Shown here piece after piece: positions 4,293-20,966 of a DNA stretch of 32,000 nucleotides. A model generated the notes under the pieces. The model saw only the letters and a list, made by a program, of their open reading frames with translations. It did no database searches and was not told the origin of the DNA. The position numbers and the translations under genes were made by a program. The stretch is taken from contig CP001848.1 of assembly GCA_000025185.1 (NCBI GenBank), positions 450,001-482,000 of the forward strand, in the 5' to 3' direction. Numbering within the stretch: position 1 is the first letter of the stretch; each line of letters opens with the position of its first letter. The stretch is from Pirellula staleyi DSM 6068. GTDB lineage: Bacteria; Planctomycetota; Planctomycetia; Pirellulales; Pirellulaceae.

Positions 4293-4345
4293 TGGCTGCA
4301 GAATCGTGGAGCAAAGATCGCTTCGATGGCGATCAGCGAACCCGA

Positions 4346-6001
4346 CTAGAACTCGATCGTTTTGATGGTGTCGCCGCCACTAAGCATGGCACCCGTGAGG
4401 CAGCGATCGGCTGCGGCGAGCAACTGCTCACTCGGGAAGTTTTTGCTCGGCAAGGCGAGGGTCGCAATGCCGATGGATAGCGAAATCGAAGCGGTCGCTA
4501 CGGACGATTTCTCGCCACGATCCGCCGATTCACTCTTGCGTTTCCACTGCGACTGAAGCTGCCTCAAAACGCTCGTGGCAGCCGAGCGCTGATAGTCGAG
4601 CAGCACCACCGCCCATCGCGCTGAAGCGATCTCGATCACGCGTCCTTCACCATGCACGGCTTCGTAGAGCGCCAGCCCCACTTCGTGCATCAAACCAGCA
4701 GCGGCTGAGGTTCCCAGCGTGTAGCAAAGATCGGTCGCCCGATCGATTTCGACAAAAGCGAGGGAGACCGGCACCCGACTGTTGCGTGCTTGAGCAATCG
4801 CCGAAGTCACGAGCCCTGCAAGACCTGGATCGAAGTTCGAAGTGTTTGAGCTGCGCGATTCGCGCGCGACGGAGTGCGGAAGACTGGCTGCTGCTGTAGT
4901 GACAGTTCCACTAGAGGCAACTGCGCTGCTGCTGGTCGATCGCGCGGTGGTGGCGATCTGCTCGCGGAGGGCCAGCGTCGATTCGAGCAACTGCTCCTCG
5001 ACACCGGTGGCGATCATCTCGCGACTCGCTTCAGCCGCCACATCCGAGAGCGCGGCATGCGCTGCGATCAGCAGCTCGGAAGTGGTTTTTCCGCTTGGAA
5101 GTTCGAGATTTAGAACATTGGCGAGTTCGCCAATGCGCTCGTCCATCACCTGCGCAATGGCCTGTACAGTTTCGAGGGAAATGCCGCCGTATGCTTTACC
5201 GGCGAAGAGCAGTTCGTGGAGCGCCGAGCCATAAGGCTGCTCGGTCATGCGCACTAACAGTTCAGCGAGATGCAGCGTCATTGCGATCGGCTTCGCGGGA
5301 CCCGACAGCCGCAAAATGGGCTCGCAATCAGGGCGCGCGGCAATCGCCGTCGTCATCGTTTCAGGCAAGCCCCAACTATCGAGCAAGCGACTACTCACCA
5401 CCAGGTGATCGAAGCCGAGTGCGTCGAGTTCGAGGTCGAGCAGGTTGCCACCATGCTGCGCCACATGATCGAGGAAACGGGTGAAGCTCTCACCGAGATC
5501 TTGCACCATCGCGAGCATGCCGACATCTTGCAGCAACCCCGCGAGGAACGCTTCGTCTCCCGAAATTCGAAACACGCGCGTGGCGAGTTCGCGGCTGGCA
5601 ATCGCTTTCAGAAGCGAGTGCTTCCAGTAACGCGCGAGAACTTGCGCATCGACGCTCGACTGCAAATTGCGAGGCAAACTGAAGCCGAGCACCAGCATCT
5701 TCAGGGGCTTCACTCCCAGCAGCGCAAGAGCCTGATTCAGGTCGGTCACTTGGCGTGATAGGCCGAAGAGCGAGCTGTTGACCACTCGCAAAATGCGGGT
5801 CGTGAGAGCCGGATCGTTCTCGAGACAGAGCTTGATCGAACGGGCATCGACCGTCGGCTCGCTCGTAAGGCGCAGCACTTCGGCTGCCACAGCCGGCAGT
5901 GTATAGAGATGGCGCACGCGGGCCACGTAGGAGGCAAGCGTCGCTGCGCTGTTGGTTTCGTTCATGGCACGCGGGGAGAACGGCATGAGAGAAAGGAACA
6001 T
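4346..6001 (-). CDS. HDOD domain protein with a C-terminal degenerate GGDEF-like domain
   Basis: 551-aa ORF. The N-terminal half is HDOD-like (LPAVAAEVLRLTSEPTVDARSIKLCLENDPALTTRILRVVNSSLFGL...LGVKPLKMLVLGFS). The C-terminal ~165 aa align to the GGDEF fold, but the signature reads IASARWAVVLL instead of RxGGDEFxxLL (also VSLAFVEIDR, ISLSIGIATL, AAADRCLTGAMLSGGDTI). Alternative starts lie at codons 6 and 13. Confidence 0.8.
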   Translation of the reverse strand: MFLSLMPFSPRAMNETNSAATLASYVARVRHLYTLPAVAAEVLRLTSEPTVDARSIKLCLENDPALTTRILRVVNSSLFGLSRQVTDLNQALALLGVKPLKMLVLGFSLPRNLQSSVDAQVLARYWKHSLLKAIASRELATRVFRISGDEAFLAGLLQDVGMLAMVQDLGESFTRFLDHVAQHGGNLLDLELDALGFDHLVVSSRLLDSWGLPETMTTAIAARPDCEPILRLSGPAKPIAMTLHLAELLVRMTEQPYGSALHELLFAGKAYGGISLETVQAIAQVMDERIGELANVLNLELPSGKTTSELLIAAHAALSDVAAEASREMIATGVEEQLLESTLALREQIATTARSTSSSAVASSGTVTTAAASLPHSVARESRSSNTSNFDPGLAGLVTSAIAQARNSRVPVSLAFVEIDRATDLCYTLGTSAAAGLMHEVGLALYEAVHGEGRVIEIASARWAVVLLDYQRSAATSVLRQLQSQWKRKSESADRGEKSSVATASISLSIGIATLALPSKNFPSEQLLAAADRCLTGAMLSGGDTIKTIEF

Positions 6002-6023
6002 CGGGGTAATTTCCCCGAGGCTG

Positions 6024-6200
6024 CTAGCGGCCCATTGCCGTGTTCAGCTTATTACCCGAATCGGTAATGCTGTCGTTGGCTGCCTGGCCAATCAGCACCA
6101 CCCCCGCAATGCAAACCATGATGATCATGGCGAGCATCACCGCGTATTCGACGGCGGTTGGTCCATCTTCTTCGCGGAGAAAGTTGGAGATCCATTGCAT
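6024..6200 (-). CDS. flp: Flp/Fap family type IVb prepilin (58 aa)
   Basis: This is the internal Met of ORF 6024..6413: MQWISNFLREEDGPTAVEYAVMLAMIIMVCIAGVVLIGQAANDSI... It carries the Flp processing motif G-x4-EY followed by a hydrophobic helix. A Shine-Dalgarno-like AGGGAG lies 9 nt upstream of ATG 6200. The upstream 71 codons of the ORF look non-coding. Confidence 0.8.
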   Translation of the reverse strand: MQWISNFLREEDGPTAVEYAVMLAMIIMVCIAGVVLIGQAANDSITDSGNKLNTAMGR

Positions 6201-6448
6201 GACGATCGCTCCCTTTCCAGTGGCTCGCCCATCGAACGGCTGCGGCACCGCACGCAACCCGGCTCGAAACAATGGAGCGGATATCGTGCGCGCAAACCTG
6301 TGGAATGCCCGGTAAGGGAACCGTAGGTCACGAAATAGCACATGGCAAACAGCCACTAAAGAACTGTGCTTTATTTCTGGCTGAGCAAGTGAGGGTGGTA
6401 ACGATCCCCTCAAGCGATACCGAGCCTACTCAGAGATCGCCAAACACT

Positions 6449-14331: not shown

Positions 14332-15387
14332 TCACTTTGGCTGAACATTCACCGTACAGGTCTGGCCCGACGGGTCGTAGTGTACGTCGACTGAAATCTG
14401 CAAAAACTGCTGGAAAATCGCGATTTGTGACTCACTATGCGGTGTGAGCGTCGTGGTCCGAAAGCATCCGCCGCGCTGCGCATCGCTTGGCTCACTAGCT
14501 GCTGAAAGCGCGAGCAGTAGTAGCAGCTGATCGGCCAAGTGGGGCCCAACCGGCACAGCGGCGCGCAGGTAATGCTGCACCTGACTCACCACCTCTTCAG
14601 CCACTTTTCGAGCACTAGCGCCGAGCCGCCCAAAGCCGATGAATAGCTCGGTGACATGTTCACTTTCGATCGTGGCGTAGATCACGTTGCCTGGCCCTTG
14701 CGCGCGAACTTCTTCCGCGTGACAAACGTCGCGCGGCCAACCGAGCGATTCTTGAAGCTCGGCGAGTTCGCGCAGCGCAATCGACTTCGCTAGATTCGAC
14801 ACCATCGCGACGGCGCATTGCCGCATCACAGCGCCACGCTCGAGCAGATCGAATCCCACAAGCGACTTGGCCGGGGTTACTTCCACAAGCATCTTGCCAC
14901 CCCCTGCAGGATAGAAACCAGGTCGCTCTAGCGTTGCCTTCACGAGTGGCCCCATGCGCTGAACGAGTGGCAGATAGACGCGCTCGAGGAATGGATAGGG
15001 TGGCGCCCATGGATTGTGCGTGCCACCTTCCAGTACCAAGCGCGAAGGAGCAGAGGCTGTCAGTAGTGCGGGAAGAATCGTCTGCAGTACAAGCGTCGCG
15101 CTCCCCGCCGTGCCGACACTGAAGTGATACTCTCCAGCATTCACCGCGTGAGGAGTAAACACTAGCGACTTCGATCCGATCGTAGCTCCCTCGACATCGG
15201 CATTGCAGATTTTTGCTGCAGCTTCTAGCGCCGTGAGATGCTGGCGCAGGAGCCCTGACTTCTCTCGCCGAGCGCGAATGTTTTCAATCACCATCGGCTG
15301 GCCGGTCACCATCGAAAGCGCGAGCGACGTGCGCAGCATCTGCCCGCCCCCCTCTCCCTGCGAACCGTCGATCAGAATCGTCCTCAT
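14332..15387 (-). CDS. rtcA: RNA 3'-terminal phosphate cyclase RtcA
   Basis: ORF 14332..15402 (GTG). ATG 15387 gives MRTILIDGSQGEGGGQMLRTSLALSMVTGQPMVIENIRARREKSGLLRQHL..., collinear with E. coli RtcA (DGAQGEGGGQILR...RAGRAKPGLLRQHL). SVGTAGSATLVLQTILPALL is also conserved. Confidence 0.9.
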   Translation of the reverse strand: MRTILIDGSQGEGGGQMLRTSLALSMVTGQPMVIENIRARREKSGLLRQHLTALEAAAKICNADVEGATIGSKSLVFTPHAVNAGEYHFSVGTAGSATLVLQTILPALLTASAPSRLVLEGGTHNPWAPPYPFLERVYLPLVQRMGPLVKATLERPGFYPAGGGKMLVEVTPAKSLVGFDLLERGAVMRQCAVAMVSNLAKSIALRELAELQESLGWPRDVCHAEEVRAQGPGNVIYATIESEHVTELFIGFGRLGASARKVAEEVVSQVQHYLRAAVPVGPHLADQLLLLLALSAASEPSDAQRGGCFRTTTLTPHSESQIAIFQQFLQISVDVHYDPSGQTCTVNVQPK

Positions 15388-15445
15388 CACCTGCTCACTC
15401 ACACTTCTCAGAGTTGTTTTTCGGGTCTATTTCCAGCGTTTTATG

Positions 15446-15484
15446 AACAAAAGAGCCTCGCGCGGCACATCACCGCGCGAGGCT
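15446..15484 (-). terminator. GC-rich hairpin plus U-tract between rtcB and rtcA (terminator or attenuator candidate)
   Basis: The minus-sense RNA reads AGCCUCGCGCGG-UGAUGUG-CCGCGCGAGGCU, a perfect 12-bp stem (15454-15465 / 15473-15484), followed by CUUUUGUU (15446-15453). Confidence 0.5.
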
Positions 15485-15528: not shown

Positions 15529-17025
15529 TTAATCGTCGGCTGCATCGCCATCTTTGATCACGAACCGAGCCTTCAGTCGAGCCACTTCAGAAGCAAGTCC
15601 CGCGAGCTTTACGCTGCGCAAAACTTCCTCGAAGTCCTTGTACGCCGCCGGAGCTTCGTCCTTCGGGTACTGCCGACAGTTGGTCAAAATATCGTGATCG
15701 TCGAACGACTTATCAATCGACTGCTGATCGAGCGCTCGAATCGCTGCCTTACGCCCGAGCACACGACCTGCGCCGTGGTTCACGCTAAAGCAGCTCAGCG
15801 CTGCCCCTGCATCGGCCACCATCACTGCCGAACCTGCTTGCGGATTACCCGGGAGCAAGATCGGATGTCCGGTGTTCTCGTAAGGAGTCCCCTTCAAGGC
15901 ATGATGCCCTGCCGGGAATGCGCGCGTCGCACCTTTACGATGCACCCACGCCTTGCGATTCTCAACGACCTCTTCCCGCGCGATGTTGTGACTGATGAAG
16001 TACACCAGATCCCCCTTCACGCCAGGAAACACTTGCTGGAATGCTTCGAGCACTTGCAAGTTGATCACGAGGTGGTTCAGTGTCGCAAAGTTCGCACCGA
16101 GCGACATGTCGTCGATGTACGCATTTCCTTCGTCGGAACCGAGCGGTGCGTAGACCAATTCGCGATCGTTGCCCGGCAGCGGGATATCCCACTTCGCGAA
16201 CTTCGATTGCAGCGTCTTGAACTGATGCATCGCCAGGTTATGGCCGATCCCACGCGATCCGCAGTGCGACAAGAACGCAACGCATCCGTCGCGCAGACCA
16301 AACGTGTCAGCCACACTTCGCGCTCGCGCGTTATTCTCAATCTGCACCACTTCGCACTCACCAAAGTGGTTTCCTCCACCGTACGAACCGATCTGCTGCA
16401 GCTTCGAGCGGAGATCGCGAAACGTCCCGATTTCCTCGTGAAATTCGACCCGTTGGGCCAGCGCTACACTCGTTCCATCGTGCCCCACGTGATGCGAATC
16501 TTCGCACCGCGCGGCCCACTCCGGAGGGATTCCGAGTGCCTGACAAACGTCAGCCGAAGCGCCTTCGGCGAGAAGCGTGCGTCCCACATCGGTGTCCACG
16601 CGACGACCATGCTTCACGCTGCGTGCACCACGTCCCGCACCGGTCGGAATTCGGTTACATACAGCCATGATTAGTTCGCGTCGCACCCGTCGATCCTCGA
16701 TCGCGTCGGCCGGAAGATCCAGCTGCAAGAGACTCATTGAGCACTTGATATCAACCCCCACGGGACCCGGGTAGATATGTGATGGCGAGACCATCACGCA
16801 GCCGATCGGCGCACCGTAACCGAGGTGACCATCAGGATTGAGCACGACATGCGAAACCCCCGGCGCTCGCCGCGAATTGATCGCTTGTCGAATGCAGACT
16901 TCGTCGAACGTGTTGCGGATCGCTTCCGTTCCAATCACAGTCACGGGAGTCACATGGTCGCCAGCTGGCAGGATCGCCGTCGCTTCACCAGTTGCAATGA
17001 TCTGATTCATCGTTTTATTTTTCAT
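15529..17025 (-). CDS. rtcB: RNA ligase RtcB (long ~495-aa form)
   Basis: 498-aa ORF with RtcB hallmarks: NPDGHLGYGAPIG, GVDIKCSM, GGGNHFGECEVV, FLSHCGSRGIGH and VNHGAGRVLGR. An alternative ATG lies at 17010. Confidence 0.9.
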   Translation of the reverse strand: MKNKTMNQIIATGEATAILPAGDHVTPVTVIGTEAIRNTFDEVCIRQAINSRRAPGVSHVVLNPDGHLGYGAPIGCVMVSPSHIYPGPVGVDIKCSMSLLQLDLPADAIEDRRVRRELIMAVCNRIPTGAGRGARSVKHGRRVDTDVGRTLLAEGASADVCQALGIPPEWAARCEDSHHVGHDGTSVALAQRVEFHEEIGTFRDLRSKLQQIGSYGGGNHFGECEVVQIENNARARSVADTFGLRDGCVAFLSHCGSRGIGHNLAMHQFKTLQSKFAKWDIPLPGNDRELVYAPLGSDEGNAYIDDMSLGANFATLNHLVINLQVLEAFQQVFPGVKGDLVYFISHNIAREEVVENRKAWVHRKGATRAFPAGHHALKGTPYENTGHPILLPGNPQAGSAVMVADAGAALSCFSVNHGAGRVLGRKAAIRALDQQSIDKSFDDHDILTNCRQYPKDEAPAAYKDFEEVLRSVKLAGLASEVARLKARFVIKDGDAADD

Positions 17026-17031
17026 GTGATT

Positions 17032-17211
17032 TCAAGGAGAATACTGCCGCCGCGACAAAGTTTTGATGAAATGTTGCGCGCTCTATCCACTGAGCTACGG
17101 CCCTAAGAGTGGTCTCACTCCGCAGTAGAGCCGGTGGGGATCGAACCCACGACCTCGAGGTCCATAGCCTTGTAATTCCACCGGCATTCGCAGCAGCAGT
17201 ATTCTCCCTGA
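17032..17211 (-). ncRNA. yrlA: Y-RNA-like (YrlA-type) RNA: long basal stem plus a circularly permuted, capped tRNA-like core
   Basis: In minus-sense RNA, the 5' arm UCAGGGAGAAUACUGCUGCUGCGA (17211-17188) pairs with the 3' arm UCGCGGCGGCAGUAUUCUCCUUGA (17055-17032). That gives 24 bp, including three G-U pairs. Inside, in order: T-arm GUGGG-UUCGAUC-CCCAC (17150-17134); CGGCUC (17133-17128); a capping hairpin GAGUG-AGAC-CACUC; GGGCCG (17103-17098, pairing with CGGCUC as an acceptor-like stem); and D-arm GCUC-AGUGGAUA-GAGC (17095-17080). The element sits between rsr and rtcB, where YrlA lies in enteric bacteria. Confidence 0.7.
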
Positions 17212-17232
17212 TGATTCTCGTTCCTACCCAAC

Positions 17233-17364
17233 AAAAAAACTGCAAGACATAGGTCGCGACAAGAGTTTGTAGAAAGACTTTTTTGAGATCACTACTCGAG
17301 CAAGTAGCTCGAGCGCTCGATCCTCCAAGGATGTACTTCCTACGGCATTCGCTTCCTACGCTGC
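17233..17364 (-). ncRNA. Second structured RNA module (Y-RNA-like, YrlB-like candidate) ending in a U7 tract
   Basis: The 5' arm GCAGCGUAGGAAGCGA (17364-17349) pairs with the 3' arm UCGCGACCUAUGUCUUGC (17259-17242). That gives 14 bp with a 2x2 internal loop and a 2-nt bulge. AG-UUUUUUU follows (U-run 17239-17233). The apical hairpin is CUCGAGC-UACUU-GCUCGAG (17313-17295), extended by GAUC/GAUC and GAG(G)AUC/GAUCUC pairings. It shares sequence boxes with the YrlA-like element. Confidence 0.45.
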
Positions 17365-17411
17365 TTCCAAACCAACTTATTCACACGCAGCTACACTAGC
17401 TCACCACCCCG

Positions 17412-17465
17412 GCAGCCGGGATCCCCTTCACTGACCAATCAGACCACGTACTGGATCCCGGCTGC
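17412..17465 (-). repeat. Perfect 13-bp inverted repeat (stem-loop) downstream of rsr
   Basis: GCAGCCGGGATCC (17412-17424) and GGATCCCGGCTGC (17453-17465) are exact reverse complements. They enclose a 28-nt loop. The loop's minus-sense sequence contains the direct repeat UGGUCUG / UGGUCAG. Confidence 0.6.
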
Positions 17466-17540
17466 ATCCACTCCCATCACTCATGGCCAGCTCAAAGAGC
17501 TTTTCGAAGGGAGGCTGGTTCACCCGAAACATTGCTGTTT

Positions 17541-19136
17541 TTAGGCTTTTTCCGACGATTGGAGCTCGATTGCATCGATCTGCTTTACGAAGTAATCGGT
17601 TGCTGTACGTCCCTCGGCAATCTCGGCGAGCAGCGTAAAAACGTGATCGCTAAAACCACCGATATGGAAGATTTCACTGCGCTCGATCGCTTGCGTTGTC
17701 TCGCCTGGAACCAGGTCGAGACAGACAAGCTTTGCCTGCGGATTTCGTTTCTGAAACAACTGCCATTGACGCATCGTTTCCGTTGCGCGATGACCTTTCC
17801 ACTGGCTTTGCGAGTCGATCCACGATTCGTTATCCGAAACGTAAATCACCATCGAAGCCTTCAGTTGGCGAGCATTCGCATGCGCTAGCGCCGCACTACA
17901 ATTCGTTCCTACCGAAGGGAGCGAAGCGAGCTGCTGTGCTTGCTTCATCACAGGTTGCTGTCGATCGAGCTTAACCAGGATCACATCGTCCGAGAACGGA
18001 ATCACTTCCGCTTCCGGATTCTTGCGTACGATCGAAGCTGCGATCAGCGCCGCCACATCGATGCAGCGCACTTTCGACGTCGCCGAGCCGCGATTTCCCG
18101 TCGCAGGCGAGCGCATCGAACCCGAGACGTCGACCATCACTAGCACCTTTCCCTCAATGCGAGGCACGTTGCTAATGGCCAGTTCCATCGCCTCCCCCAG
18201 GGCTGCTTTGATCTTGGCCGGCAACGTTTCATTCATGTTTAAATAGGCTGCCATCAGCTGATACGGAAACACGCGTGCTTGCTGAATGGCTCGCGGATTC
18301 CGCAGCCGGTTGGCAATGCATCGCACCAGTTCTTGATCTTGCAGCACCCCATGGCGCTCGAACGTATTTAGGTTCATGCGCGTCGTTTGCCACGAGGCAT
18401 TTCGCGCAATCCGCTTCCAGTCGCTCGGGGTCAGCGGCAAATGGGTGAGCATGGAAAAAGGGACATCGGGGAGCTCATCCTTTCCACGAATCACCTGACG
18501 CTTGATCCGCTCATACTCCTGAACGATTGGCGGCAACGCCCCTTCCTCATACTCACGACCAATCAGCCAGGCATACAACGCCTCGCGCGATGGTGTCCGA
18601 GGGACGGGATGAACCATCTTGACGATATCACCCAGCGAAGGATCGTTTCCTACACTTCCCACAAACAACGCCTGATCACTACGAGCATCGAGCCACTCGC
18701 GCACTAGCCGCTTCGGTCGACTTCCGAGACTCTTGCGCCCCACCACTCCTGAGCGGATGATCTGCACAAAGTTGCGGAGCATCTTGGGCGAATCGATCAC
18801 ACGCTGAAACAGTTCAGAGGTCACCAGTTCGGGCGACTTGACGGTCAGTAGCGCCACCAGCAAGGCCGGTACATCTTTCAAATAGGCTCGATCGCGCGAG
18901 TAGATTGCGGCCCGCGCGATGAACTCCGGCGAAACTTTCTGTGCCAATCGGAGCACCGTAGCGAGGTGCGTTTCCGCATTGGCATAGCACGTGCTACCGA
19001 GCATGCCGGTAGCCACATACTGAGCCAGCGCTTGCTCGGCTGTCCGCGAATAAGCGAGCCCTCCGGCCCGATTGAGCACATCAGCTGCGGCGAAGAACTT
19101 GCCGACGATCGACTGAAACAACGACTTCGATGCCAT
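17541..19136 (-). CDS. rsr: Ro60-related protein Rsr (TROVE domain plus vWA domain)
   Basis: ORF 17541..19457. I start it at ATG 19136 (MASKSLFQSIVGKF...) for three reasons: AGGAG lies 10 nt upstream, a sigma-54 promoter lies at 19195-19211, and the longer ORF would overlap rtcR. The body is TROVE-like (LNRAGGLAYSRTAEQALAQYVATGMLGSTCYA...). The C-terminal vWA has the MIDAS motif VMVDVSGSM. Confidence 0.85.
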   Translation of the reverse strand: MASKSLFQSIVGKFFAAADVLNRAGGLAYSRTAEQALAQYVATGMLGSTCYANAETHLATVLRLAQKVSPEFIARAAIYSRDRAYLKDVPALLVALLTVKSPELVTSELFQRVIDSPKMLRNFVQIIRSGVVGRKSLGSRPKRLVREWLDARSDQALFVGSVGNDPSLGDIVKMVHPVPRTPSREALYAWLIGREYEEGALPPIVQEYERIKRQVIRGKDELPDVPFSMLTHLPLTPSDWKRIARNASWQTTRMNLNTFERHGVLQDQELVRCIANRLRNPRAIQQARVFPYQLMAAYLNMNETLPAKIKAALGEAMELAISNVPRIEGKVLVMVDVSGSMRSPATGNRGSATSKVRCIDVAALIAASIVRKNPEAEVIPFSDDVILVKLDRQQPVMKQAQQLASLPSVGTNCSAALAHANARQLKASMVIYVSDNESWIDSQSQWKGHRATETMRQWQLFQKRNPQAKLVCLDLVPGETTQAIERSEIFHIGGFSDHVFTLLAEIAEGRTATDYFVKQIDAIELQSSEKA

Positions 19137-19194: not shown

Positions 19195-19211
19195 ATGCAC
19201 AGCGAGTGCCA
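19195..19211 (-). promoter_or_regulatory. Sigma-54 (-24/-12) promoter of the rsr-Y RNA-rtcBA operon
   Basis: The minus-sense sequence is TGGCAC-TCGCT-GTGCAT. GG and GC have the exact consensus spacing (TGGCAC-N5-TTGCW), with one mismatch. It lies ~60 nt upstream of the rsr ATG and divergent from the sigma-54 activator gene rtcR. Confidence 0.7.
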
Positions 19212-19308
19212 AACTTCAGATATTCCGCCAAACAATTCGCAAACCACTACAGATATTGGGCTTAGAGATATCCGCACCTTTGGTCTACAACGCCAACTTT
19301 CGCCTAAA

Positions 19309-19336
19309 TTGATCTTTAGCGATCGTCTCTTATAAT
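19309..19336 (+). promoter_or_regulatory. Sigma-70-like promoter of rtcR: TTGATC-N16-TATAAT
   Basis: TTGATC at 19309-19314 and a perfect TATAAT at 19331-19336. The rtcR ATG (19344) begins 8 nt after the -10 hexamer, which implies a leaderless or near-leaderless mRNA. Confidence 0.4.
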
Positions 19337-19343
19337 TTTGGAT

Positions 19344-20966
19344 ATGACGAAACAACGAAAACTGGTCGTGGTGGGGATCTTTGGGACGCGGCTGGACGCC
19401 GGGCATGCCAAATCGCGCTGGAACCGCTGGCGCCCCACTGTCTCGGTTTGCCAGCACGAAGATTTGCTCGTCGATAGGCTAGAACTAATTCATCAGCCGG
19501 GCGAAGAAGCTGTCGCCGACACACTGGTTCGGGACATCGCCAGTGTCTCGCCGGAAACGGAAGTCCGTCTCCATCCACTGAAGTTTAACGACGCTTGGGA
19601 TTTCGAAGAGGTCTTTGCCGCCCTCCATCACTGGTCGCGCGGGATGAACTTCCGCCCCGATACGGAAGACTATTTGATCCACATCACCACCGGGTCGCAT
19701 GTCCAGCAAATCTGCCTATTCCTCCTCGCCGAATCGCGGCACATCCCTGGACAACTCCTGCAGTCCTCCCCGCCGCTGCGAGCCGCTGAAGCGACCGGCG
19801 CCTATCGCATCATCGATCTCGATCTCTCGAAGTACGATGCCCTTGCGACCCGCTTTGCCGAAGAACAGCAGGAAGGACTCTCGTTCCTGAAATCGGGAAT
19901 CGAGACCCGCAGCCGCACGTTCAACACCCTCATCGAGCGGATCGAGCGAGTCGCTATTGCCAGCAGCGCGCCACTCTTGATCACCGGTCCCACCGGCGCG
20001 GGCAAATCGCAGCTGGCAGCGCGGATCTTCGAACTCAAGCGACGTCGTGGCCAAGTGCGCGGCAGTTTCGTCGAAGTGAACTGTGCCACTTTGCGCGGCG
20101 ATCAAGCCATGTCATCGCTCTTTGGACATGCCAAAGGGGCATTCACTGGCGCGACGACCCCGCGTGCTGGATTGCTTATGGCCGCTGATCAAGGGATCTT
20201 ATTCCTCGATGAAATCGGCGAGCTTGGGCGCGACGAGCAAGCGACGCTGCTGCGCGCGATCGAAGAAAAACGCTTTCTCCCAGTCGGCTGCGATCGAGAA
20301 ACAGCGAGCGACTTTCAGCTGATTGCAGGAACCAATCGCGATCTTGCAGCGGATGTCCACGCGGGACGCTTTCGCGAAGATTTGCTCGCGCGCATCAACC
20401 TATGGACCTTCCGACTGCCAGCCCTCGCCGAGCGCCGCGAGGATATCGAACCCAACATTCAGTATGAACTCGACCGCTACGCCGCACGGACCGGACAGCA
20501 GGTGACGATCAATAAAGAAGCGCGACAAAAGTTCCTGCAGTTTGCGCAGTCTCCGGCTGCAACATGGTCGGCCAATTTTCGCGACCTCAATGCGGCGATC
20601 ACACGCATGGCGACACTTGCCCCCAGTGGCCGGATCACCACCGACGAAGTGCACGACGAAATCGCTCGCCTCGAAAGTGCCTGGCAATTTTCGGGGAGTG
20701 ATTCAGGCAAGTCATCGCGCGACGATCTGTCGCTGCTCGTCGAACTCCTCGGCGACGAGAAAGTCGCAACGATCGATCTGTTCGATCGCGCGCAGCTCGC
20801 TGCTGTCGTGCGAATCTGCCGCGAAAGCGCGTCACTATCCGATGCTGGCCGGAAACTGTTTGCTATCTCACGGCTAGCCAAATCGCAGCCCAACGATGCC
20901 GATCGACTCCGCAAATTCCTAGCCCGTTTTGAGCTTAGCTGGACCGATTTCGCTGCGTCGCGGTAA
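19344..20966 (+). CDS. rtcR: Sigma-54-dependent transcriptional activator RtcR (N-terminal CARF-like domain, AAA+ domain, C-terminal HTH)
   Basis: ORF 19338..20966 (TTG); ATG at 19344 gives MTKQRKLVVVGIFGTRLDAG... The RtcR-type N-terminus is present. The AAA+ core has Walker A GPTGAGKS, the sigma-54 contact loop GHAKGAFTGA, and Walker B ILFLDEIGEL. Confidence 0.9.
   Translation: MTKQRKLVVVGIFGTRLDAGHAKSRWNRWRPTVSVCQHEDLLVDRLELIHQPGEEAVADTLVRDIASVSPETEVRLHPLKFNDAWDFEEVFAALHHWSRGMNFRPDTEDYLIHITTGSHVQQICLFLLAESRHIPGQLLQSSPPLRAAEATGAYRIIDLDLSKYDALATRFAEEQQEGLSFLKSGIETRSRTFNTLIERIERVAIASSAPLLITGPTGAGKSQLAARIFELKRRRGQVRGSFVEVNCATLRGDQAMSSLFGHAKGAFTGATTPRAGLLMAADQGILFLDEIGELGRDEQATLLRAIEEKRFLPVGCDRETASDFQLIAGTNRDLAADVHAGRFREDLLARINLWTFRLPALAERREDIEPNIQYELDRYAARTGQQVTINKEARQKFLQFAQSPAATWSANFRDLNAAITRMATLAPSGRITTDEVHDEIARLESAWQFSGSDSGKSSRDDLSLLVELLGDEKVATIDLFDRAQLAAVVRICRESASLSDAGRKLFAISRLAKSQPNDADRLRKFLARFELSWTDFAASR

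Follow-up and report, generated by a model that had tools for sequence, protein, structure and literature searches.

We report that the minus strand at positions 17032-17211 of a 32,000-nucleotide (nt) stretch of Pirellula staleyi DSM 6068 (contig CP001848.1, positions 450,001 to 482,000; this whole stretch is the window referred to below, and coordinates are counted from its first letter) is very probably the gene for a YrlA-family bacterial Y RNA, lying between rsr, which encodes the Ro60 orthologue, and rtcB. Sequence, fold, covariation, family match and synteny all bear on this assignment, and the RNA they describe is an ordinary member of the YrlA family that standard annotation has missed. 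A preliminary description, made from the letters alone, had proposed a YrlA-type RNA with a permuted, capped tRNA-like core between rsr and rtcB; that proposal is borne out by the Rfam match, by a match to a covariance model built from related loci (R1), by covariation and by gene context. P. staleyi may already be among the 254 species of Chen et al. 2014.

The limits of the 180-nt RNA are taken to be those of its basal stem, and are drawn from the minimum free energy (MFE) fold, the Rfam family RF02553 (YrlA) and model R1. The minus strand folds to an MFE of -86.8 kcal/mol, compared with -58.5 +/- 4.4 for 200 dinucleotide shuffles (z -6.4, 0/200), and the opposite strand folds 15 kcal/mol worse, so that the structure is strand-specific; such a penalty is expected because G·U pairs turn into C·A mismatches on the other strand. 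At the base of the RNA, UCAGGGAGAAUACUGCUGCUGCGA (17188-17211) pairs with UCGCGGCGGCAGUAUUCUCCUUGA (17032-17055) in a stem of 24 bp, 21 of them Watson-Crick and 3 G·U. The inner end of this stem overlaps a conserved 5' motif, GCGAAUGCCG (17182-17191), which is the equivalent of the family motif GNCGAAN0-1G and the proposed contact for Rsr (Ro60), and on the 3' strand UUGUCG (17053-17058), the partner within this putative Rsr-binding module. Both are conserved in alignments A1 and A3: CGAAUGC is invariant or nearly so, and in UUGUCG the U, G, U and G are invariant and the C nearly so. The exact 10-mer GCGAAUGCCG occurs twice in the window, both times on the minus strand and within the rsr-rtcB spacer. 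Through this CGAAUGC / UUGUCG internal-loop region the basal stem is continued by an anticodon-stem equivalent, in which the MFE fold pairs GGUGGAAU (17175-17182) with AUUUCAUC (17065-17072).

Above the anticodon-stem equivalent the elements of a tRNA follow in permuted order: anticodon-stem strand, long variable arm, T arm, hairpin-closed acceptor, D arm and the other anticodon-stem strand. The 24-nt variable region (17151-17174) contains a hairpin, GACC-UCGA-GGUC (17151-17162), which appears in the MFE fold, ends in C48 and is of the kind described as a 'V' stem-loop for many YrlAs (PMC4201824); its sequence ACCNCGAGGUC is conserved in the class rather than covarying. The T arm, GUGGG-UUCGAUC-CCCAC (17134-17150, tRNA positions 49-65), is read directly from the sequence, and GGTTCGANNCC occurs only this once in the window. 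It is followed by the acceptor 3' strand CGGCUCU (positions 66-72) with A73 at 17126 (together 17126-17133), which pairs with the acceptor 5' strand AGGGCCG (positions 1-7) at 17098-17104 in 7 standard pairs including G3·U70, an eighth pair U(-1)-A73 being possible. The helix is closed by a cap (17105-17125) that reads CUGC, then the hairpin GGAGUG-AGAC-CACUCU, then U(-1), as in the MFE fold; cap and A73 make up a 22-nt insert that is more stable than its own shuffles (z -2.5). U8 and A9 (17096-17097) lead as a UA linker into the D arm, GCUC-AGUGGAUA-GAGC (17080-17095, or 17080-17097 as UA-GCUC-AGUGGAUA-GAGC), which is likewise read from the sequence and carries A14, G15, G18 and G19.

In tRNA numbering the core is complete: U8 is at 17097, A14 at 17091, G15 at 17090, C48 at 17151 directly 5' of the T stem and the GG at 17087-17088, while the T arm offers G53-C61 and the loop U54 U55 C56 G57 A58 (UUCGA). 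As read from the sequence, the pairs U8:A14, G15:C48 (the Levitt pair), G18:U55, G19:C56 and U54:A58 could all form, and the same tertiary interactions are seen in the Salmonella YrlA crystal structure (10.1101/312249). The MFE fold gives the same layout of basal stem, T arm, closed acceptor helix and D arm. Every string quoted in the preliminary description is present on the minus strand where it was placed, and its order of T arm, acceptor and D arm holds in both sequence and MFE fold, as do the 24-bp stem (17188-17211 with 17032-17055), the closing hairpin GAGUG-AGAC-CACUC within 17105-17125 and the D-loop GG and T-loop UUCGAUC of the elbow. The acceptor helix, given there as CGGCUC/GGGCCG, is also present, but it is 7 bp long, or 8 with U(-1)-A73, and not 6; the variable-arm hairpin and a second Y RNA in the spacer had been overlooked. 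A 2-bp helix of the MFE fold and a 4-bp helix of the Rfam model, both beside the D arm, are unsupported and were excluded from the tested structure.

Close homologues of the locus were found by an Rsr protein search, in which the closest relative was 63% identical in Rsr, and the DNA of 12 planctomycete loci (L021-L032) was then compared; scans of genome and metagenome contigs returned no Rsr relative above 56% identity. In a MAFFT-based alignment of the window RNA with 13 close relatives (A1), 94.8% of cells form standard pairs, compared with 40-48% when the partners are slid by 1-3 columns, and 22 of 52 pairs have changed on both sides. These compensatory changes, which the preliminary description had named as a check, fall on both helices it singled out, the basal stem (13/24 pairs, 96% of cells paired) and the acceptor helix (4/7), and they recur in a larger alignment, A4, for which R1 supplied 86 distinct Y RNA modules out of 33 sources. 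A4 was fitted to R1 and is hence biased towards the structure, although slid controls and A1 agree with it: 93.7% of its cells are paired as opposed to 36-53% when slid, and 37 of 40 pairs covary. Helix by helix, the T arm is 100% paired and covarying in A1 and A4, the acceptor helix is 99% paired with 7/7 pairs covarying in A4, the D arm is 98-100% paired in A1 and A4, and the anticodon-stem equivalent, with 96% of cells paired, covaries at 3/8 pairs in A1 and 7/8 in A4.

The family assignment follows from two models. RF02553, whose gathering score is 69 bits and which was run in E-value mode for matches below that threshold, aligns with 17046-17194 (-) over its full length (positions 1-114/114) at 52.2 bits and E 8.7e-11. 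R1, built from 15 homologues in 11 other planctomycete loci with the window sequence excluded, aligns with 17043-17200 (-) over positions 1-169/169 at 138.9 bits and E ~1e-36, and elsewhere in the 32 kb it matches only a neighbouring Y RNA of the rsr-rtcB spacer. A YrlA has been defined by T, acceptor and D arms together with GNCGAAN0-1G, within 4 kb of rsr and on the same strand (PMC4201824); the RNA at 17032-17211 lies within 4 kb of rsr on the same strand and has the T arm, the D arm (family pattern UAGCUCA...GG...AGAGC, 3' of the T arm), the closed acceptor and the tertiary nucleotides. YrlAs are characterised further by Rsr binding and by the tRNA modifications pseudouridine 55, made by TruB, and dihydrouridine, made by DusA.

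Some observations do count against this assignment and have to be set beside it. The RF02553 score of 52.2 misses the curated cut-off of 69, so that the Rfam check suggested by the preliminary description gave a full-length match but one under the gathering score; at gathering thresholds Rfam returned no match anywhere in the 32-kb window, tRNA included. The score falls short because a 14-nt insert at the variable arm and a 23-nt insert at the cap, where the model has a 2-nt acceptor loop, are penalised, and 20 of 23 YrlA matches in nine syntenic planctomycete loci also score below 69; the shortfall is typical of the clade and concerns a score cut-off, not a biological feature. The site corresponding to GNCGAAN0-1G reads UGCGAAUG, in which the core CGAAUG is kept and the first G is replaced by U. 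This U forms a U·G pair in the stem, and the same position varies in the planctomycete alignment and covaries within the stem. Finally, the variable-arm hairpin has only 65-76% of cells paired, with little covariation in A1 or A4.

Other identities for the segment were tried and rejected. A canonical tRNA gene finds no hit from ARAGORN or, at the gathering score, from Rfam, and a 24-bp stem stands in place of the anticodon loop; the expectation that tRNA finders would miss the RNA is met by ARAGORN, which reports no tRNA and no transfer-messenger RNA (tmRNA) in the window. The tmRNA families RF04321 (22.4 bits, gathering 47) and RF01850 (20.2 bits, gathering 84) cover the T arm and acceptor only, and for tmRNA, the permuted two-piece form included, there is neither a tag reading frame nor a pseudoknot body. 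A terminator prediction at 17044-17058 is part of the basal stem, not a terminator, and a 76-amino-acid (aa) open reading frame (ORF) with a TTG start that spans the whole YrlA (17015-17245, -) is probably spurious, given that compensatory RNA changes mark the evolution of the region. In locus L021 a 68-aa ORF annotated by a gene caller (4643-4849) likewise overlaps the homologous YrlA in its 5' part, so that 'hypothetical proteins' annotated in spacers of this kind may be false. The 5' side of the outer basal stem has a recurring sequence, GGAGA(A/C)A(C)CUG, in the window, L021, L022, L023 and L025; it is paired in the window, L021 and L022 copies and unpaired in the others.

The window RNA belongs to a long-cap class of YrlAs, with 16 copies in the window and the 12 planctomycete loci, which we compared with 9 short-loop YrlAs from the same loci. 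Pairwise identity of the acceptor stem is 83% in the long-cap class as opposed to 42% among the short-loop YrlAs; G3·U70 is found in 15/16 against 4/9 and A73 in 16/16 against 1/9, and the long-cap copies continue with C74 (14/16) and U75 (16/16) on a consensus acceptor GGGGC(C/U)G / C(G/A)GCUCC. When all Y RNA modules are taken together, the 3:70 pair shows free variation (UG 24, CG 23, GC 6, AU 5, UA 5). Beyond U75 the long-cap class has inserts of 14-82 nt without sequence conservation that almost always form a hairpin and are more stable than their shuffles (mean z -3.5; 14/16 at p<=0.05). The acceptor end itself (7 bp, G3·U70, A73, C74), which we take to be that of bacterial tRNA-Ala and tmRNA, is a new class-level feature of planctomycete long-cap YrlAs, and the weak Rfam tmRNA matches follow from it; our literature search returned nothing on YrlA in Planctomycetes and nothing on an alanine-type YrlA acceptor. 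In most loci the copy with this acceptor is the YrlA nearest rtcB, one per rsr-rtcB spacer, in Pirellulales and Planctomycetales.

The window copy itself has both tRNA-Ala identity elements, G3·U70 and A73, its pair 1:72 being A-U as against G-C in tRNA-Ala and tmRNA. Its acceptor is 7 bp long, as in the Mycobacterium smegmatis type, and A73-C74 is encoded, with one unpaired nucleotide before position +1. A free 3'-CCA is absent: the acceptor is capped in the primary transcript, and A73 is followed by CUG. The preliminary statement that the RNA has no free CCA end is thus true of the primary transcript but may fail after processing.

A further acceptor class was seen outside the planctomycetes. 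YrlAs of Lysobacteraceae and other Gammaproteobacteria have a 7-bp acceptor, GCGGCAG / CUGCCGC, then an encoded GCCA and a hairpin of ~40 nt (L003 5650-5823, L004 5626-5800, L005 5642-5815, L006 5627-5800, L009 5645-5818, L015 4691-4867, L016 4679-4855 and L008 near 5776), and the acceptor of L016 is a compensatory variant of this helix. To judge from the letters, the GCCA is a discriminator plus CCA embedded in a 'closed' acceptor.

How the capped end of the long-cap class is used is less certain than its family. The cap might be an intervening segment, cut by RNase P 5' of position +1 (the A at 17104), after which trimming to A73-C74 and CCA completion would leave a two-piece, alanine-type Y RNA that alanyl-tRNA synthetase (AlaRS) could bind or charge; the 5' half would then end in ...CGGCUCUAC before addition of CA. 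An acceptor of exactly 7 bp followed by an interruption is the very feature to which RNase P cleavage has been attributed in M. smegmatis. The YrlA of that species, alone among those studied in having a 7-bp acceptor, is cut by RNase P, nibbled, and extended by CA from its encoded C to CCA (PMC4201824). The conservation of G3·U70, A73, C74 and U75 in front of unrelated inserts, at a position 3:70 that is otherwise free to vary, points the same way, as do the contrast in acceptor identity and in A73 with the short-loop YrlAs, the encoded GCCA of the gammaproteobacterial class and the weak, partial tmRNA matches on T arm and acceptor. However, insert hairpins that are stabler than their shuffles suggest selection for a closed or protected end and not a disposable spacer, and in the window the hairpin abuts the acceptor through a single unpaired U, itself able to pair with A73, so that almost no single-stranded 5' leader is left for RNase P. 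Moreover, CU and not CCA follows A73, G3·U70 is found in 4/9 short-loop YrlAs too and is therefore enriched in the long-cap class but not exclusive to it, and the authors of the family paper regard most YrlAs as closed. Given the stable insert hairpins, the single unpaired nucleotide and the CUG after A73, we retain a closed YrlA as the best explanation, and consider opening by RNase P possible but on the unlikely side. The more specific proposition that long-cap YrlAs are either opened by RNase P and trimming, CCA-completed and bound or alanylated by AlaRS, or else serve as closed decoys for an enzyme or toxin by which the acceptor of tRNA-Ala is recognised, is more speculative still, and we would not expect it to hold in full.

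Two further alternatives were weighed for the segment. In one, it is a functionless relic, either a decayed pair of tandem tRNA genes, of which the first left its T arm and the second its D arm, or a piece of a permuted tmRNA gene. A tRNA dimer would indeed give a T arm followed by a D arm, a dimeric-tRNA origin of YrlA has been proposed in the literature, and there are the weak partial matches to tmRNA models. Two-piece permuted tmRNA genes do resemble the window YrlA in that the 3' acceptor strand precedes the 5' strand with an intervening segment between them, but the window YrlA, unlike tmRNA, has no tag frame, pseudoknots or encoded CCA, and an Rsr-binding-type stem replaces the tmRNA body. 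A similar arrangement is reportedly found in the permuted tRNA genes of Cyanidioschyzon merolae, said to have been described by Soma et al. in 2007, in which the tRNA 3' half lies upstream of the 5' half and an intervening sequence joins the acceptor ends; once circularised and processed, their products are said to be true tRNAs that have anticodon arms. In the window RNA, by contrast, a Ro-binding-type stem replaces the anticodon loop, so that no decoding function is possible. Against a relic speak the compensatory changes that keep the helices across 86 modules, including a 24-bp stem without any tRNA counterpart, and the conserved CGAAUGC / UUGUCG module; ARAGORN finds neither tRNA nor tmRNA in the window, the tmRNA matches reach 20-22 bits against gathering scores of 47-84 and are confined to T arm and acceptor, and both tag reading frame and pseudoknot region are missing. 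Because of the covariation this alternative is effectively refuted and its probability close to nil. In the other, the structure serves chiefly in cis, as part of the rtcB mRNA, and cleavage at the base of the stem creates or unmasks a short 5' untranslated region without a Shine-Dalgarno sequence and so controls translation. The stem does end close to rtcB, 21 nt before ATG 17010 or 6 nt before ATG 17025, neither of which has a Shine-Dalgarno sequence. The distance from the end of the last Y RNA to the rtcB start is 16-32 nt in 7 of 12 planctomycete loci; a near-perfect 24-bp duplex is, besides, long enough to be an RNase III substrate. Yet about 57-900 nt separate the two in the remaining 5 of 12 loci, in L026 a gene for an IS200/IS605-type Y1 transposase (5821-6273) lies between the Y RNA array and rtcB, and the basal stems of relatives shrink to 6-14 bp. 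In other bacteria YrlAs are not adjacent to rtcB, that of M. smegmatis being upstream of rsr; conservation falls on the Rsr-binding and tRNA-like modules and not on the rtcB junction, and rtcB starts without a Shine-Dalgarno sequence occur at any distance from a Y RNA. We regard a mainly cis-acting role as improbable, and consider it just as doubtful that excision of the Y RNA is coupled to rtcB translation, as the preliminary description had suggested from their proximity.

The junction with rtcB also calls for a small correction. The preliminary description had the stem end 7 nt before an rtcB ATG at 17025. The adjacency is real, but 6 nt (AAUCAC) separate the last paired base, 17032, from that ATG, and the start is probably ATG 17010 instead: homologous RtcBs are mostly 493-494 aa long with N-termini that in most cases read M-x2-3-(I/L)IPTGEAT, and the window RtcB begins MNQIIATGEAT from ATG 17010, to which ATG 17025 adds MKNKT. 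The stem would then end 21 nt before the start codon. The absence of a Shine-Dalgarno sequence, noted earlier for ATG 17025, is confirmed and extends to ATG 17010.

The flanking genes, identified by Pfam on the neighbouring ORFs, are those of an RNA-repair operon in the order rtcR <> rsr-spacer-rtcB-rtcA, with rsr, the Y RNA, rtcB and rtcA on the same strand; the layout recurs in all 12 of the related planctomycete loci. Gene rsr (17541-19136, -; 531 aa) has the Pfam TROVE and Ro60-vWA domains, its product is 100% identical to the TROVE-domain protein of P. staleyi DSM 6068, its start is preceded by the Shine-Dalgarno sequence AGGAG, and the YrlA begins 330 nt 3' of its stop codon (17541). Downstream lie rtcB (15529-17010, -; Pfam RtcB; 493 aa from ATG 17010 or 498 aa from the in-frame ATG 17025) and rtcA, encoding an RNA 3'-phosphate cyclase by Pfam (14332-15402, -; start GTG 15402 or ATG 15387). 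Divergent from them is rtcR (19344-20966, +), a sigma54-dependent activator gene with the Pfam domains RtcR and Sigma54_activat. A predicted sigma54-type promoter element, TTGGCAC-N5-GTGCA (19196-19212, -), lies 59 nt upstream of the rsr ATG. Of the 12 planctomycete loci, 6 have a similar element at a distance of 49-65 nt upstream of rsr, and in L001 the distance is 91 nt. On the other strand a sigma70-like promoter, TTGATC-16-TATAAT (10/12 matches; 19309-19344, +), ends 8 nt before the rtcR ATG at 19344, so that the rtcR mRNA may be leaderless or nearly so. A GC-rich hairpin of 14 bp with CUUUUGUUC after it (15454-15484, -), situated between the rtcB stop (15529) and the rtcA start, looks like an intra-operon terminator or attenuator.

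The spacer holds a second, YrlB-like Y RNA at 17247-17361 (-), which R1 matches through the stem modules only (35 bits, E ~3e-8). It carries the module GCGAAUGCCG ... UUGUCGC, with the exact 10-mer at 17343-17352, and an 8-bp anticodon-like stem on which a long hairpin with a UACUU loop replaces the tRNA-like core. Since it aligns with T-arm-only modules that lie 5' of YrlA in 8 planctomycete loci, it corresponds, on sequence grounds, in position and type to YrlB; these planctomycete relatives retain the T arm, which the window copy has lost. Like the YrlBs of Salmonella and M. smegmatis and Yrn2 of Deinococcus, it has an Rsr-binding motif and lies between rsr and YrlA. It has no detectable sequence homology with Salmonella YrlB, and it matched no Rfam family, Rfam having no family for YrlB. 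Directly 3' of its extended basal helix stands a run of seven U (17233-17239, -), which may be a signal for processing between the two Y RNAs or an incomplete intrinsic terminator; in related loci, too, many Y RNA modules have a U-rich tail on their 3' side. A strong 13-bp hairpin, GCAGCCGGGAUCC ... GGGAUCCCGGCUGC (17412-17465, -), lies between the rsr stop and the first Y RNA; with neither CGAAUGC nor an R1 match, it is no Y RNA module. A third Y RNA candidate put forward by a motif script (17369-17474) was rejected as a plain 13-bp hairpin with no CGAAUGC module and no R1 match.

R1 recovers 87 Y RNA modules in 33 loci, every one (87/87) on the rsr strand, and most of the array modules are below the Rfam gathering threshold. 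The planctomycete rsr-rtcB spacers carry tandem arrays of one to five modules (for example L024 4658-5445 and L029 2419-3139), in which three types occur: mini Y RNAs (62-97 nt) that have neither T nor D arm, T-arm-only modules, and full YrlAs with a short or long acceptor closure. In L001, a metagenome-assembled genome of Phycisphaerales, a tRNA-His gene (6163-6237) stands between YrlA copies at 5962-6103 and 6247-6397, which recalls the tRNA-Asp co-transcribed with Deinococcus Y RNAs. At the end of a short Akkermansiaceae contig (L002), an Rfam group II intron match (4335-4411, -; 54 bits) adjoins a YrlA.

The nearest known counterpart is YrlA of Salmonella Typhimurium (RF02553), whose rsr-yrlBA-rtcBA operon is a matching arrangement (PMC4201824, PMC7790460): a divergent rtcR, control by sigma54, then rsr, a YrlB-like RNA, YrlA, rtcB and rtcA. 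Its effector domain, known from a crystal structure (Wang et al. 2018), is a tRNA-like L-shape with a closed acceptor stem (10.1101/312249). The two RNAs share the permuted order of T arm, closed acceptor and D arm, CGAA(U)G near the 5' end, a YUAY (UUAC in the window) at the start of the variable region, the UA linker before the D arm and the nucleotides for tRNA tertiary interactions. The window YrlA is longer (about 158-180 nt as against the 114 positions of the RF02553 model) and is set apart by its 24-bp basal stem, by its 24-nt variable region with a hairpin, and by an acceptor of 7-8 bp with G3·U70, A73 and a 21-nt hairpin cap where the Salmonella RNA has a 6-bp stem and a small loop.

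With M. smegmatis YrlA (Chen et al. 2014) it has in common the 7-bp acceptor, the C encoded after the discriminator and an accompanying YrlB-type RNA, which in M. smegmatis is processed from the same precursor; there, however, the Y RNAs are upstream of rsr and not under RtcR control, and cleavage and CCA addition have been demonstrated. Deinococcus radiodurans Yrn1 is another Rsr-bound Y RNA with a tRNA-like T arm, encoded beside rsr, and it is the functional precedent for the tethering of Rsr to PNPase. Unlike the window YrlA it has another arm orientation, no clear D arm and a place outside any rtc operon, and it is regarded as an independent lineage.

From the gene order and the Salmonella operon we would expect the YrlA to be co-transcribed with rsr, the YrlB-like RNA, rtcB and rtcA from an RtcR-controlled sigma54 promoter, and presumably then to be cut out of the polycistronic transcript. 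Its lower module, the long terminal stem with the CGAAUGC / UUGUCG region, would by homology be the site for the ring-shaped Rsr (Ro60), and its upper module would fold as a tRNA-like L-shape in permuted order with elbow and core nucleotides kept. By analogy with Deinococcus and Salmonella, YrlA may gate Rsr or tether it to an effector, for which PNPase, the partner known from the Deinococcus and Salmonella complexes, is the precedent. Expression, Rsr binding and function are thus all predicted from these better-known systems.

As a single instance the RNA matters little, a YrlA beside rsr, often within rtc RNA-repair operons, having been known since 2013-2014. Of wider consequence is that the Rfam gathering score excludes the window RNA and, in the planctomycete loci examined, about 85% of YrlA copies, so that their spacers are left blank or annotated as small hypothetical ORFs, whereas the clade-specific model finds Y RNA modules there in tandem arrays of up to four or five. 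The conservation of an alanine-type acceptor provides a concrete hypothesis for what reads the tRNA-like module, which is the main open question on bacterial Y RNAs, and the encoded NCCA of the Lysobacteraceae-type class offers a hypothesis of the same kind. If true, the alanine-acceptor reading would name a candidate partner of the YrlA tRNA-like module.

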